Below the pieces are notes generated by a model that was given only the letters and a program-made list of their open reading frames with translations, made no database searches and was not told the origin of the DNA. From positions 32,001-96,000 of the IMG/VR virus record IMGVR_UViG_3300013426_000016: DNA of 64,000 nt; one strand, 5' to 3'. This document shows positions 2,007 through 34,900 of the stretch, piece after piece. Source of the DNA: a virus (lineage: Duplodnaviria; Caudoviricetes). Every line of letters starts with the position of its first letter. Position 1 is the first letter of the stretch. The translations under genes and the position numbers were made by a program.

Positions 2007-2162
2007 ATGTCTAAAAATCTCATGAATGATCTTGATAAATATCAAGACTCTAAGACTTCAGAACAGTTTAAACGTAAACCAAAGAATCCAAAAAACAAGC
2101 ACGTTAAAACTAAAAAACGTAAAGAGGAAACTTTGGAATACATTGAAGACTGAGAAGACTAA
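2007..2162 (+). CDS. small basic hypothetical protein (51 aa, code 4)
   Basis: ATG 2007, in-frame TGA at 2151, TAA 2160-2162; Lys-rich. Confidence 0.6.
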
Positions 2163-2178
2163 CCATTAACTATTTTGA

Positions 2179-2233
2179 GAGTATAGATTAAAGCGCCTCC
2201 ACGTGGTTATACTTGGGTAACGCTAAACGCTTT
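2179..2233 (+). ncRNA. candidate minimal HDV-like (theta-like) self-cleaving ribozyme
   Basis: P1 GAGUAUA/UAUACUU with G1-U wobble; P2 AAAGC/GCUUU; P3 GCC/GGU; L3 UCCACGU; P1.1 CC/GG; minimal P4 GUAAC; J4/2 GCUAA containing the candidate catalytic C2223. Confidence 0.7.
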
Positions 2234-2249
2234 TTTAAAAATATTACTT

Positions 2250-2552
2250 ATGAACATATTTAGTAAACTTTTTAAAAAACCTACGCCCAAAGTAGAAACT
2301 CCTCAAAAAGATTTGTCTACACTCAAACAGTTCGATGATGTCTGAATACAAATAAATGATGAAATATATGAGGGATGGGTAGTAAATATAGTTAATGGAG
2401 AAATACAAATAGTTTTTTCAGACAGAGATAATAAATTACAAGATATTTCTTTTATGAAAGACAGACCTTTAAATAGAACTTTCATTAAAGAAAAATATAG
2501 AACCTTATATTTAAATAATCCTAATTATGGAATCGGTTCAAGAAACAGCTAA
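2250..2552 (+). CDS. hypothetical protein (100 aa, code 4)
   Basis: Open frame once TGA 2343 is read as Trp (DDVW-IQINDEIYEGWVV); ends TAA. Confidence 0.7.
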
Positions 2553-3659: not shown

Positions 3660-4182
3660 GCATATAAAGAGGATTATTATCCATAAACATTGGGTTCTTT
3701 ATTATGCAAATAAATGTGGAATAACTTGGCAAGGAATTACTCATGATTTAAGTAAGTTTTCTCCAATAGAGTTTTTTGAGAGTATTAAATACTTTGTAGA
3801 AGGAAAGTCTCCAATAGAAGTTGCTAAAGATATAAATGGTTATAGTCTAGCGTGGCAACATCATAAAGGACATAATCCTCATCATTATGAGTATTGGGTG
3901 GACAACCTTGATAAAGGAGGAACTGCGATAAAAATGCCATATAAATACGTTATAGAGCTTATATGTGACTATTTAGCCGCAGGGAAAACATATAATGGAA
4001 AAGATTTTACTTTTGAAAAAGAGTATAATTGGTTCTGTAGAAAGATTTTACTTTCTTCTCCAAAAATGCATCCTAAAACGCTTGTTTACTTGTGTGCAGT
4101 ATTTGAAACTATTGCCAAAGAAAATAGAGTAGATAGAATACTTTTAGATAAAGTTAAAAAAGAAATTGAATATGATGTATAG
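3628..4182 (+). CDS. HD-superfamily hydrolase (DUF5662-like)
   Basis: HK..V, HDLSK, HHKGHNPHHYEYW, ELICDY.AAG. Confidence 0.75.
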   Translation: MNLNNIVNTFKHIKRIIIHKHWVLYYANKCGITWQGITHDLSKFSPIEFFESIKYFVEGKSPIEVAKDINGYSLAWQHHKGHNPHHYEYWVDNLDKGGTAIKMPYKYVIELICDYLAAGKTYNGKDFTFEKEYNWFCRKILLSSPKMHPKTLVYLCAVFETIAKENRVDRILLDKVKKEIEYDV

Positions 4183-5167
4183 TTTTGATGAAATAGGACT
4201 TTTACCAAAAACTATTTCTACTATAACTTCTAGAAAAGAAGTAAATCCTTATAAAAATGGAAAACTCCCCATTTTTGTAGCTCCTATGACTTGTTTAATT
4301 GATGCAAATAATATAGGAGTTTTTCAAAATAGTGCTTTTATTCCTATTTATCCCATTTTCTTTACTGAGAATGTAGAAAGAAGATTTGAAATTGCAAATG
4401 GTTCCTGGGTAGCTGTTTCTCTGAAAGAATTTAAAGAATATTTTGTAGAAAACCCTCTTCCAAAAAATAGATTACCCTACAGAATACTAATTGATTGCGC
4501 ACAAGGCCATATGAAAAGTATTTTTACTCTAGCACGTAAAGCAAAGGAATATTATGGTACTAATCTTATTATTATGGCTGGAAATATTGCAAACCCAAAT
4601 GCTTATGATGAGTATTGTAAAGCAGGAATTGATTATGTTCGTGTGGGAATTGGAGGAGGAAGTGGTTGTCTAAGTTCCGTTTTAACAGGAATACACGCAT
4701 CTTTGCCTTATTTGCTCACCGAAATAATTAAAAGAAAAATAGATATTTTGACACAAATTTCTTTGCTTACTGAAAAGAGTAAAGAGTATCTATGTCTTAC
4801 TAGGATTGTAGCAGATGGTGGAGTAAATAATATTTCTAAAATTATGAAATCTCTTGCTTTAGGTGCAGATTATGTAATGATGGGAAGTATGTTTGCTAAT
4901 TGTGAAGAAATACGTCTTAAAGGTTTGTATTATGGACAAGCTTCAGAATCAGGACAAATAGATCGTTTTGGAAAGATTGTTAATGAACCAGAAGGATGTA
5001 GTCGAAACTATATACCAACTACAGATTTAGCAACTCTTGCAAAGAAAATAGAAGATATTTTACGCTCTACTATGTCTTATGCTGGAGCTAAAACTCTTAA
5101 TGATTTTATAGGAAAAGTTAGATATGAAATACAAACTATAAATGAGTTTAATAGTTATAATAAATAA
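4172..5167 (+). CDS. IMP dehydrogenase / GMP reductase family protein (no CBS domains)
   Basis: IFVAPM, IDCAQGH, AGNIA, VRVGIGGGSGC, IVADGG, ALGADYVMMG, LRSTMSYAGA. Confidence 0.85.
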   Translation: MMYSFDEIGLLPKTISTITSRKEVNPYKNGKLPIFVAPMTCLIDANNIGVFQNSAFIPIYPIFFTENVERRFEIANGSWVAVSLKEFKEYFVENPLPKNRLPYRILIDCAQGHMKSIFTLARKAKEYYGTNLIIMAGNIANPNAYDEYCKAGIDYVRVGIGGGSGCLSSVLTGIHASLPYLLTEIIKRKIDILTQISLLTEKSKEYLCLTRIVADGGVNNISKIMKSLALGADYVMMGSMFANCEEIRLKGLYYGQASESGQIDRFGKIVNEPEGCSRNYIPTTDLATLAKKIEDILRSTMSYAGAKTLNDFIGKVRYEIQTINEFNSYNK

Positions 5168-5179
5168 TCTTAGGTAATA

Positions 5180-6466
5180 ATGACTGAATCTGAATATCTT
5201 TTACTTAGAGAAAAATATTTTTGTCCAGAGTATTATGAAAAACTCATTATCGATACAAGAGAATTTCCTAAAAAGATTATAGTTATAGATGCAACGAGAA
5301 TTACATCGAAATTCGATTACCACTTTTATATTACAGAAATTACAAAAGAGGCTCTTATTAATTATATATATACTGATGAACTTAAAATTTGTACGGAATG
5401 GCTTGGATCTGTTCTTTTGAAAGAATCAAATATTGTTTTCTTAGGAGATACATATTCTAATATATTTCAGTTTTTTATTAGTTATAGCCAATGCTTTTCG
5501 AAGATATGGGTTTATGTCCAATATATGAACTATGTCTATGATCCTGTATTTTTCGATTTGTTAGCAGCACTTAAACAATATAATATACCAATAAGAGGTC
5601 TTATTGAAATATTATTAACTTCAAATCACAGAAAACTTGTTTCTTCTAATAGATTAATACAAGACAATTTTGGTGTTAAAATCCCAACATTACGTGTATT
5701 AATTTCATTATTAGAAAAAAATCTTGCCGGTGATTTAGTAGGTAGTTTTACTGCGGTAAAATCTTTATTTAGTTGTTCAGATAAACAAGCTTGCGAATAC
5801 ATAGACCTCATTAAATGGGAGGATAAAGAAAGAATTAATAAAAATCTCCTTTCTAAGGAAAGTAAAAAGGAATTGCGAAGATATTATAATTATTTACATA
5901 CAATAAAAACTTTTAAACCTGAACTTGTGAGTATGTATCTCGATTACATCATGTTTAGAGATAGTATTGTAAATCACAATATTTCAAATTTTCCTAAGTA
6001 TCCAAAGGACGTAAATAAGTTAGCCTCTTTGCATGATAAAGTTTTTGAAATTTTTAGAGAAGAGAAAGTTTATAGAGAAAAGAATTTATTATCTACAATG
6101 CAAATATCTTATGAAGCTTTTTACAAAAAGGCAAAAATGTTTGAATTTTCTGATTCAGAATATAGTATAATTGCTGTAAAAGATTTAAAAGATTTAATAA
6201 CAGAAGGAAAAGAGTTACATCATTGTGTAAGTTCTTATATTGAATCTGTAGGAAAAGGGAAGGAATATATTTTATTTTTAAGACAAACTCCAAATTTGGA
6301 AACACCTTATTTTACTATCGACATTACCCCAAACGGAAAAGTGAGACAAATACATGGATATTGTAATTGTGATATTACAGATGAAATACTTCCGTTTGTA
6401 AAAAAATGGGCAACTAAGTTTAATTTGGACATTTCAAACTTTTCTAAAGTTTGTATCCATCTTTAA
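5180..6466 (+). CDS. PcfJ-like domain protein
   Basis: C-terminal LITEGKELHHCVSSY...ILFLR...PYFTI...QIHGYCN. Confidence 0.75.
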   Translation: MTESEYLLLREKYFCPEYYEKLIIDTREFPKKIIVIDATRITSKFDYHFYITEITKEALINYIYTDELKICTEWLGSVLLKESNIVFLGDTYSNIFQFFISYSQCFSKIWVYVQYMNYVYDPVFFDLLAALKQYNIPIRGLIEILLTSNHRKLVSSNRLIQDNFGVKIPTLRVLISLLEKNLAGDLVGSFTAVKSLFSCSDKQACEYIDLIKWEDKERINKNLLSKESKKELRRYYNYLHTIKTFKPELVSMYLDYIMFRDSIVNHNISNFPKYPKDVNKLASLHDKVFEIFREEKVYREKNLLSTMQISYEAFYKKAKMFEFSDSEYSIIAVKDLKDLITEGKELHHCVSSYIESVGKGKEYILFLRQTPNLETPYFTIDITPNGKVRQIHGYCNCDITDEILPFVKKWATKFNLDISNFSKVCIHL

Positions 6467-6493: not shown

Positions 6494-6567
6494 GGACATT
6501 TAGTTTAATGGTTAAAAAACAAAGATCTTCAAAATCTTAGATAACTGTTCGATTCGGTTAATGTCCG
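6494..6567 (+). tRNA. opal suppressor tRNA, anticodon UCA (probably Trp)
   Basis: Acceptor stem GGACATT/AATGTCC; D arm GTTT/AAAC; anticodon stem AAGAT/ATCTT with loop CT-TCA-AA; T arm AACTG-TTCGATT-CGGTT; discriminator G; no encoded CCA. Confidence 0.9.
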
Positions 6568-6636
6568 CTTAATATTTATATATTATGATTAAAAACTTTA
6601 ATATTATTTATTCCTACAAGGAAAATTTATACAACA

Positions 6637-10323: not shown

Positions 10324-10610
10324 TGTTACAATTTCCAGAAAAAATATATCTTCATAATTTAGGTCACGCCTATAGTTCATTTAAAAGAGAACTTATTTAT
10401 AAAGATATTAAAGGTGATGTAGCAAGATACGTAGCTACAGAAGTTTCTCGTATTATAGGAAATCTTGATGATATACAAGCAATTGACTTCGATGGGGGCC
10501 CTTTCTTAGGAGTAGGAGATTCTCTTTTTAATTCTTTTGTAATTACAGGCTTTGTAAGAGATAAGAAAACTAAAGAGATTTTAGTACTTTTGACAAAATG
10601 TTCTATTTAA
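10323..10610 (+). CDS. hypothetical protein
   Basis: ATG overlaps the groEL stop codon (TAATG). Confidence 0.7.
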   Translation: MLQFPEKIYLHNLGHAYSSFKRELIYKDIKGDVARYVATEVSRIIGNLDDIQAIDFDGGPFLGVGDSLFNSFVITGFVRDKKTKEILVLLTKCSI

Positions 10611-31920: not shown

Positions 31921-34900
31921 ATGCAAGTAATTAAAAGAGACAAAACTATCCAAGAGTTTGATTTTAATAAAATTGTTACAGCTTTAAATAAAGCTTTTGG
32001 AAAGGAACAATGATTTAATGAAGATGGAGATTTAGTAACGATTCTAGTACAAGAAGATATTAATAGTGCTTTAAATGCTTTGGAATCTCCTTATCACATA
32101 GAAGATATACAAGATGCTGTAGAGAATGCTTTGATGGCAAATCGCTGTTTTAGTGTTGCTAAAAAGTATATTTTGTATAGAGAGAAACATGCACAAATAA
32201 GAAAAGAGGTTGAGAAAAATTTACAATTTATAAATAAATTTATTTCTTCAGATAACACTGCAAATGCTACTATAGACGATAATTCTAATGTTAGTAATCA
32301 TAATATTGCTGTTTTAAATGCTGAAATACATAAAGAAAATAATCAAAATACAAATTATAGACTTTTAGAGGATACTATAAAACAACTATATCCAGATTTT
32401 GATTACAAACAATTTATAAAAGATTGTAATTCAATTTGTTATGTACATGATTCAAGTTCTCAAATTGGAATGCCTTATTGTGTCGCTATTACTATGTATC
32501 CTTTTCTTACAGAGGGTATTAAAAAACTTGGAGGACTTTCCGCAAAACCAGAATCCCTAGAAAGTTTTTGTGGAATATTTATAAATATGGTTTTTGCTAT
32601 AGCGTCTCAATATAAAGGTGCTGTTGCAACGCCGGGTTTTCTTTTATGTATGGATTGGTTTTGTAGGCAAGAATGGGGAGATGATTATATTTATCATTTA
32701 GATAAAGTTGTTTCTTTAGGAAAGAAAAATCGTACTATTGAGTCTCAAATTGTTCAATATTTTCAACAAATAACATTCAGTATCAACCAACCCGCATCGG
32801 CACGCGGAGGGCAATCAGTTTTCTGGAATTGTTCGATCTTTGATAAAGAATTTTATAATACAATGTATGGAGATTTCTTTTTTCCAGATGGAACTGCTCC
32901 AGTTTGGGAAACCTTTAATTGGTTGCAAAAAAAGTATTTGCATTGGCTCAACCAAGAGCGTTTAAAAACTCTTTTAACATTTCCAGTAGTTTCTGTAGCT
33001 TTAATTTATAGGAATAATCAATTTGTAGACCAAGAGTTATTTGAATATGCCTGTCAAGAGTATTCTGAAGGAAATTCATTCTTTACATATATAAATGATT
33101 CTCCGGAAAGCTTAAGTTCATGCTGCTTTTCAAAAGACCAAAAGATTTTATGGAAATCTTCAACATCTGGAGTTCATTTAACTACCTTCGAAGAATTTAA
33201 AAATCTTCCATATAGTGGAAATAAAGAAAATTTTAAAATATTTCATAATGGAAGTTGGGTAAAAGGAAAATTTGTAGAACTTCCAAATAGAAAAATGTAT
33301 GAAGTTACTACATTTAATAATAAGAAAATTGTTGTAACAGATAATCATCTTAATCCAACTCTAAGAGGTGATATTCCAACTTCTGAATTAACGATAAATG
33401 ATTATTTACTTTTTAATCAACAGCCTACAAATGCAATTTCTGAAAACGATGAACACTTAACATACGAACAGGGGTTTGTAATTGGAACGTTTTTAGGAGA
33501 TGGAAATTTTGGTTCTGAGCAAAATGGAGTAATTTATGATATTAATCTCTCTTTAAATTTGGAAAAGCATAAAAAATGCATGGAAATGTTGGATATTGCA
33601 AACCAACAAGTGGGTGGGCAAAATAAGCCATATCTTGCTTCTATATATAATAATGTTTATCCAGTTAGACTTTCTTCTAAAGAATTAGTAGCATTTATTA
33701 CAAAATGGACTAATTGGAAAAGAGGGACTTATGCTTTTAATAAAGAACTAAATCTTAATTGTTTGTTACAATCTCTTGATTTTAGAAAAGGTATTTTAGA
33801 TGGGTGGTACGCTACGGATGGAGGAAATTCAAATCGTTGTTATACAACTTCTCCAAAACTTGCAGAATGTATGGAGGTATTAATTACTTCTCTTGGACTT
33901 AATTCAATTATTGATATTTCAGATCGTACTGACGAAGCGGTTATTATTAGAGGGGAAGTGTATAAACGAAATTATCCTTTATATTGTGTTCGTTGGTACG
34001 AACCTGCAAATCATCGCAAAAATAAGGATACTGAGAATTCTTGGATTAAAAAGAATAATTCTATTTACTTTAAAATCAAGGATATACATGAAATAGAATA
34101 TTCTGAAAATGTATATTGTTTTGAATGCAGTGAACAAGAGCCTTATTTTACTCTTCCGAATGGTATAATTACTCATAACTGTCGTCTTTCTTCTAAAATT
34201 TCAAAACCACAATTTAATTTTACAAATGGACAAATAGGGGAAATGACTGGTAGTCAGAACGTTATAACACTCAACTTAAATAGAATCGTTCAAGATTGGT
34301 ATAATACATTAGATACTGAAATCGCATTTAAAGAGAAGAGAGGGAAACCTTCTCCACATTTTATTGGAAGTCTCTTAATTACTGACAGAGAGTATCAAGA
34401 AAATTTACAAACTTATCTGATTGAAATTCTAGAAAGAATTTATAAATACCAAACAGCATATAATACATGTCTTAAACGCCTTTTGGAAGCAGGTCTATTA
34501 ACTACTTATACAGCAGGATTTATCGATCTTAAAAAACAATATTTAACTATAGGTATTAATGGATTAAATCAAGGTGCGGAATTTCTTGGATATCAATGCA
34601 ATAAAAATGAAGCTTATAAAAGATTTTGTAATTTAATTTTTGGAACTATTAAAGAACAAAATCAACTCCATAAATCTAAGTCATTGATGTTCAATACAGA
34701 ATTTACACCGTAAATGAACGTGCGGTGTATAAACCTTTCTTAATTGACTCGAAACTCCCTAGTGGACAACGAGGCGCAAGCAGGAGAATTCCGTGCAGCG
34801 TGAGAGACTAAATAGAAAGGACGTAGAAATACGTATGTAATAGTCCGAACTCTATGGTAACATAGAGAGTTAATTAGAAATAATTAACCGTCTAATATAT

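Follow-up and report, generated by a model that had tools for sequence, protein, structure and literature searches.

We analysed a 64,000-nt window (positions 32,001 to 96,000) of the phage record IMGVR_UViG_3300013426_000016 and identified a 55-nt element on its plus strand, at 2179..2233, that carries every part of a minimal HDV-like ribozyme of the theta type. The element occupies an 87-nt spacer between two small genes and lies in the sense orientation within a long block in which all genes are on the plus strand. Upstream is a small basic ORF (2007..2162, plus strand) that encodes 51 aa when TGA is read as Trp and 48 aa under the standard code; its stop codon lies 16 nt before the predicted cleavage site, A2178/G2179. 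Downstream is a conserved 100-aa ORF (2250..2552, plus strand) in which codon 32 is an in-frame TGA and which starts 16 nt after the ribozyme. A suppressor tRNA with the anticodon UCA (6494..6568, plus strand) is located 4.3 kb downstream, and its 3' end carries no ribozyme. Just upstream of this tRNA, window positions 4166-5167 and 5180-6466 encode IMPDH/GMP-reductase-like and PcfJ-like proteins, respectively.

Read from 5' to 3', the strands at 2179-2233 follow the order P1, J1/2, P2, P3, L3, P3', P1', P1.1, P4 stub, J4/2 and P2', forming a nested double pseudoknot in which all paired segments are complementary. The 5' strand of P1, GAGUAUA (2179..2185), begins with G2179 as the +1 nucleotide and pairs at 7/7 positions with UAUACUU (2208..2214), the first pair being G2179.U2214. 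A 4-nt J1/2 (GAUU, 2186..2189) leads into the 5' strand of P2, AAAGC (2190..2194), which pairs at 5/5 positions with GCUUU (2229..2233), can be extended to 6 bp by G2195, and is followed on its 3' side by a U-run (UUUUUU). P3 is formed by GCC (2195..2197) and GGU (2205..2207), its first pair being a G.U. In L3, UCCACGU (2198..2204), residues C2199-C2200 make up the 5' half of P1.1 and pair at 2/2 positions with the GG at 2215..2216. P4 is reduced to a stub with its loop, GUAACG (2217..2222), and J4/2 (2223..2228) consists of the predicted catalytic residue C2223, the trinucleotide U-A-A, and two extra nucleotides, A2227 and C2228.

Theta ribozymes were defined by Kienbeck et al. (2024, Nat Commun 15:1559, PMC10879173), and the properties that characterize them are present here: a G at +1 (G2179) with P1 in the range of 6-7 bp, an L3 of the form U-YC-NCGY whose CC pairs with the GG following P1, a P4 cut to a stub of 5-8 nt (GUAACG), and a J4/2 that opens with a cytosine followed by N-R-A (C2223-U-A-A). 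Two core blocks, CCTCCACGTGGT and GGGTAACGCTAA (24 nt together), are letter-identical to theta ribozymes, of the type validated in vitro, in the portion of the published supplement that was compared. There, L3 has the consensus T-CC-ACGT, GUAACG is a recurring L4, and a representative parse (PMC10879173) reads ACC-T-CC-ACGT-GGT-P1'-GG-GTAACG-CTAA-P2'. The initial annotation had recognized an HDV-like, theta-like ribozyme at this position, and each element it named was recovered at the coordinates given above. Its choice of C2223 as the catalytic cytosine agrees with the published parses in that portion; of the J4/2 that it read as G-C-U-A-A, the C-U-A-A part stands, while the same parses assign G2222 to the L4 stub. 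Under the published rule, sequences matching both the C and the T versions of the descriptor are regarded as true positives (PMC10879173); here the match to the T control at the catalytic position was obtained only through a register shift of one nucleotide. Taken on its sequence, the 55-nt element is almost certainly a true homologue of theta ribozymes, and we classify it as a theta-type, P4-less HDV-like ribozyme, with putative self-cleaving activity, of the isolated, non-tRNA subclass.

To judge how readily such a motif arises by chance, we compared the window with shuffled sequences. The core pattern had one match in the window and none in 100 shuffles, even with three mismatches, and this match was the only one in the complete 203,856-bp record. 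Our own theta-style descriptor was modelled on the published motif and relaxed to 0-2 extra J4/2 nucleotides, with a P2 of at least 5 bp and the catalytic C required. The structural-descriptor search, which the initial annotation had proposed as a check, returned only 2179-2233 and gave 0 matches in 300 dinucleotide-shuffled versions of the window, both strands considered. Rfam has no theta model; the F. prausnitzii HDV model, RF02682, aligned end to end with 2179-2234 at 16.7 bits (E 0.46 for 181 nt), below its gathering score of 44. A published theta ribozyme scored in the same way reached 25.9 bits and also fell short, and for this reason the RF02682 threshold is uninformative for members lacking P4. 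The sub-threshold score, together with the fact that CCACGTGG is a perfect palindrome, could be taken to mean that the resemblance is fortuitous or that the site is a protein-binding palindrome unrelated to ribozymes. The palindrome belongs, however, to the conserved L3/P3 core common to the whole ribozyme family, the shuffles were empty for both the core pattern and the descriptor, and all helices occur in the HDV order with correct spacing. This explanation is effectively refuted, and we give it next to no credence.

An exact core scan of IMG/VR retrieved 27 loci, to which 3 MAG contigs were added, and parsing of these sequences yielded 24 unique ribozymes. The MAG contigs were the only matches in the scan of bacterial and archaeal genomes and are unrelated members of the family. 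Since a MAFFT alignment shifted the length differences to the 5' end, misaligning P1, base pairs were counted with a structure-aware parse (in Python), in which P2 is the best helix found and its pairing is thus partly by construction. The 24 ribozymes have 20 distinct P1 sequences, and P1 pairs at 7/7 positions in 21 of them; most P1 positions are occupied by three or four types of base pair, which is covariation at the level of the family. P2 ranges from 5 to 10 bp, and 0, 1 or 2 nucleotides are added after CUAA, tRNA-linked members included. The P3 of the window ribozyme, GCC/GGU, recurs in L021, which is tRNA-linked, and in L023. Because the same variants occur in other members, the peculiarities of the window ribozyme lie at the edge of natural variation and not outside it; it is an extreme case among its relatives.

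Several of these related ribozymes are isolated from tRNAs. The one in L023 ends approximately 10 nt ahead of the start codon of a sense ORF (ribozyme bounds are approximate), and those in L003, L005 and L024 lie about 80-105 nt ahead of a sense ORF. On two of the MAG contigs (L041 and L042, assigned to Candidatus Coprovivens and Oscillospiraceae), isolated theta ribozymes with an identical core begin 2-3 nt after a stem-loop that is not a tRNA, an upstream partner of another kind than that of the window ribozyme. A pattern composed of P2 and the start of P3/L3 detected 36 viral loci, none of which, by eye, resembled a relative of the ribozyme; one of them (L064) has a loosely similar layout, and no ribozyme parse was obtained for it.

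The junction between J4/2 and P2 is the most unusual part of the element. The published geometry, as inferred from parsed hits in the portion of the list compared, comprises a J4/2 of 4-5 nt followed by a P2 strand of 7 nt with at most about one mismatch, and a J1/2 of 1-3 nt. The window ribozyme does not fit this arrangement, needing either a 6-nt J4/2 or a 2-bp P3, with a P2 of 5-6 bp and a J1/2 of 4 nt, so that by our reading, and with the descriptor geometry as inferred from those hits, the published descriptor would miss it. A longer J4/2 with an alternative G2195-C2228 register had already been noticed from the letters, and both are seen in our parse. In the alternative register, G2195-C2228 replaces G2195.U2207, P2 grows to 6 bp (-5.1 kcal/mol), J4/2 becomes the 5-nt CUAAA type, and P3 retains only 2 bp. 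A variant with a 5-nt J4/2 was the fastest cleaver in the published study (PMC10879173). In the standard register the 5-bp P2 has a duplex energy of -2.7 kcal/mol, the weakest among the 20 relatives, and P1, at -4.2 kcal/mol, is among the weakest. Other members with two additional nucleotides on the 3' side usually have one on the 5' side as well that could pair with one of the two, and the window ribozyme has none.

Two copies of the pentanucleotide ACGCU, at 2220-2224 and 2227-2231, lie 7 nt apart, which makes a competing pairing possible. Indeed, P1 and P2 are both absent from the nested minimum-energy fold of the 55-mer, in which 2192-2195 pairs with 2221-2224, sequestering C2223. The duplication could represent a kinetic trap, a switch, or a trace of the origin of a new P2. 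Given the weak P2 and P1, the off-descriptor junction and the competing fold, activity is likely but not assured; we predict with reasonable confidence that the ribozyme is active.

The two flanking ORFs differ in how well they are supported as genes. For the upstream 51-aa ORF, the database search recovered only identical copies, on 61 contigs, and because nothing but itself was found in the protein database, its coding status is without support from divergent homologues. The 100-aa ORF is present in identical form on 14 contigs and has homologues at 47-65% identity, the nearest two at 65% and 50%, and its Trp-32, encoded by TGA, is invariant across the aligned proteins; as judged from these alignments, it is a real conserved gene. 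Its product had no match in Pfam or PHROG. The predicted structure is a small beta-barrel (pLDDT 79.8), and a fold search with this model gave weak Sm/LSm/Tudor-like matches (E 0.05-0.3).

The phage combines a UCA tRNA with a TGA codon at an invariant Trp column, and its use of TGA is uneven. Throughout a block of about 18 kb (genome 24,803-42,600, corresponding to window positions of about -7,200 to 10,600), approximately 40 plus-strand ORFs contain no TGA, and Trp is always TGG. The sole TGA-containing ORFs in this block are the two that flank the ribozyme, with one TGA each, as the initial annotation had described for the flankers; this is a post hoc count on a small sample. TGA-rich genes start only past window position 10,600 or so. 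The record encodes three tRNAs, with the anticodons UCA, CAU and UUG, and the ribozyme lies behind none of them. Theta ribozymes of the tRNA-associated subclass cleave no more than 5 nt away from the 3' end of a tRNA, and the nearest tRNA here is the UCA tRNA 4.3 kb downstream. Neither ARAGORN nor Rfam detected a tRNA or tRNA-like element upstream of the cleavage site, which bears out the earlier remark that the ribozyme stands apart from any tRNA. The upstream promoter named in the initial annotation was not confirmed, as no sigma-70-like site was found upstream on the plus strand in a scan that excludes Bacteroidota-type and phage-polymerase promoters. A terminator scan near the ribozyme gave no terminator-like site.

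Alignment of the 100-aa ORF family located 7 loci in viral and metagenome contigs, and the ribozyme was absent from the site between the gene pair in 7/7. Three of the relatives (L030, L031 and L038) are related large phages with sizes of 164-176 kb. In two of these, L030 and L038, the 100-aa ORF homologue and a small basic ORF of 48-49 aa share 19 nt, with no ribozyme, and L031 was judged by eye to have the same overlapping, ribozyme-free arrangement. More distant relatives (L029 and L032-L035) also had no ribozyme at the site. As relatives have the overlap and no ribozyme, the element is likely a lineage-specific insertion that split a coupled gene pair. The small upstream ORFs of the window and its relatives have no significant similarity (E 0.65); their position, size and composition only suggest homology.

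The overlap in L030 (2840-3273) and L038 (1337-1770) runs through CGATGAAGAGATGA, where the downstream ATG overlaps the upstream TGA in an ATGA junction. The downstream ORF of these phages has TGA as codon 4, so that it would stop after 3 codons under the standard code, while with TGA read as Trp both ORFs continue. Neighbouring genes in L030 and L038 are TGA-free, and the two-gene module is therefore a TGA island in the relatives too. When the flanking proteins and a nearby 428-aa protein were used as queries, no close relatives were found among viral contigs, and searches of GenBank phages yielded neither DNA nor protein matches.

The nearest ribozymes are those of L004 and L020, IMG/VR phages of 171-176 kb, both linked to tRNA-Met. 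The 5' strand of P1 in the window ribozyme is that of L004, and the 3' strand is that of L020; we estimate the probability of a chance P1 match to one of the 20 distinct P1 sequences at roughly 0.5%. The three ribozymes further share an identical core, an A after CUAA, and a similar GAU in the J1/2 region. They differ in that the ribozymes of L004 and L020 start at the 3' end of tRNA-Met and have a 7-bp P2 of another sequence, whereas the window ribozyme has no tRNA within 4 kb. In L020, ARAGORN calls a tRNA-Met immediately ahead of the ribozyme. In L004, where ARAGORN calls no tRNA, the ribozyme is preceded by a T-arm and an acceptor 3' end that can be aligned to the tRNA-Met of L020. The 5' part of this tRNA looks interrupted (L004:1140-1279), possibly by an intron or an insertion in the gene for tRNA-Met.

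A homologue of the 100-aa ORF is present in the L004 phage as well, at a distance of 11.5 kb from the ribozyme there. The tRNA-Met of the window phage is located outside the window (170,178-170,251 of the record); its acceptor stem (AGCGGG...CCCGCUA) is the same as that of L020, and it is followed by unrelated sequence with no ribozyme. Alignment of the window with L004 and L020 is confined to the ribozyme itself, the flanks being unrelated. We also considered a vestigial tRNA upstream of the window ribozyme and rejected it, since ARAGORN and Rfam gave no match and the flanks could not be aligned to the tRNA-Met of L004 or L020. From these comparisons, the most likely ancestors of the ribozyme are theta ribozymes linked to tRNA-Met in related large phages; it would have left a tRNA end for a spacer in an mRNA, with P1 kept and P2 replaced on both strands.

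Based on the motif and its surroundings, we favour, with some reservation, an isolated theta ribozyme that cleaves co-transcriptionally at A2178/G2179 and separates two cistrons as the best explanation of the locus. During transcription of the operon, the nested double pseudoknot would fold, and C2223 in J4/2, together with Mg2+, would cut the backbone at A2178/G2179. Since the established HDV-like mechanism gives such ends, the upstream RNA would terminate in a 2',3'-cyclic phosphate, 16 nt past the stop codon of the first ORF, and the downstream RNA would carry a 5'-OH, with the folded ribozyme at its head, then 16 nt of AU-rich leader and, after these, the second ORF. In this way, cistrons whose counterparts overlap in related phages would be physically uncoupled, each message acquiring an end of its own and a separate fate. 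The most reasonable interpretation of the element is self-processing of an mRNA, and there is about an even chance that mRNA separation or end definition is its main role.

The peculiar junction also permits a view of the element as an inactive or crippled relic, a theta copy displaced from a tRNA 3' end that cleaves poorly and serves as neutral spacer. Its P2 is the weakest in the set, its 6-nt J4/2 lacks the compensating 5' nucleotide of the other members with two extra nucleotides, and the competing hairpin sequesters C2223; moreover, it is the sole ribozyme in the genome, is used by none of the three tRNAs, and relatives manage without one at this site. Against a relic, 24/24 core positions, 7/7 P1 pairs, P1.1 and the catalytic C are intact, P2 has been rebuilt on both strands relative to the nearest relatives with complementarity kept, and 55 nt of dead spacer is rarely retained in dense phage genomes. 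We regard a relic as unlikely. Another possibility is that the ribozyme makes the 3' end of the upstream RNA, whether the message of the small ORF or a non-coding RNA of about 1990-2178, with the U-run possibly acting as a weak terminator. Formation of the 3' end of an upstream RNA is the classic theta role, the upstream ORF has no divergent homologues, UUUUUU directly follows P2, and the predicted folding of 1990-2178 is slightly more stable than that of shuffled sequences (z -1.81). This z-score is weak, as 11/200 shuffles fold equally well, and the upstream region shows neither an Rfam match nor a tRNA-like element. The terminator scan detected no such site, and no hairpin immediately precedes the cleavage site, unlike in L041 and L042. 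Such a 3'-end function appears decidedly unlikely.

The competing fold could also be given a regulatory sense, in which a tRNA-Met-derived ribozyme was recruited to split a small conserved two-gene module dependent for its expression on the UGA-suppressor tRNA of the phage and acts as a tuned, switchable mRNA-processing element. The 5' strand of P2 would then pair either with the true P2 3' strand, giving an active ribozyme, or with the region of C2223, giving an inactive one. We consider this proposal highly doubtful; if it were true, cleavage, and along with it the fate of the TGA-containing gene downstream, would be timed and not constitutive.

The relatives' overlapping two-gene module without a ribozyme and the genes of the window phage separated by one provide a natural comparison. 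The locus is therefore a convenient place to test the effect of an intergenic theta ribozyme on message stability and on translation of its neighbours. The junction further indicates that the published descriptor, as inferred from the portion of its hits compared, overlooks natural variants in which J4/2 is longer and P2 short. The advance is incremental, as this class of RNA, its presence in phages and its existence as a stand-alone element are already published; what is specific here is the off-descriptor junction and the informative comparison of loci with and without the ribozyme. The window ribozyme sequence did not appear in the part of the PMC10879173 supplements searched, and our literature search returned no work on the isolated theta class later than that paper.

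Among known systems, the isolated theta ribozymes (Supplementary Data 2) are the closest. The initial annotation implied that a stand-alone element would be new; 526 of 1281 published occurrences are, however, already isolated from tRNAs, and metagenome reads add a further 7704 sequences (PMC10879173). Isolated members are mostly intergenic, with more than 96% in sense orientation to the nearest gene, and a function has been proposed only for the tRNA-associated subclass, namely 3'-end formation of the upstream RNA (PMC10879173). The window ribozyme shares with the isolated members, in the portion of the list compared, the topology, an identical L3, P1.1, GUAACG and CUAA, and a 7-bp P1 starting from G, and like them it occupies an intergenic site of a large phage in sense to its neighbours. 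In contrast to the entries in that portion, it has two extra J4/2 nucleotides with no 5' partner, a P2 of 5-6 bp instead of 7 bp, and a J1/2 of 4 nt, and its P3 starts with G.U, whereas the entries pair GCC with GGC and ACC with GGT. The window phage appears to read TGA as Trp, while only 5.6% of the published theta-containing genomes use code 4, and none of the genomes in which a theta ribozyme adjoins a suppressor tRNA is predicted to use it (PMC10879173); the ribozyme-free UCA tRNA of the window phage is consistent with the latter figure.

More distant are the F. prausnitzii HDV ribozyme (RF02682) and the HDV-like ribozymes with a full P4. The order of the fold is the same, and the L3 consensus and the J4/2 GCUAA align, but in the window ribozyme P4 is a 6-nt stub, and the score is 16.7 bits against the gathering score of 44. 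The HDV-like ribozymes at the 5' ends of R2 and L1Tc, as described in PMC3774820 and PMC4035085, offer a parallel to the proposed processing, in that the downstream RNA is freed with a 5'-OH and the ribozyme forms its 5' end. These are large ribozymes of eukaryotic mobile elements, and the resemblance is one of mechanism and not of membership.
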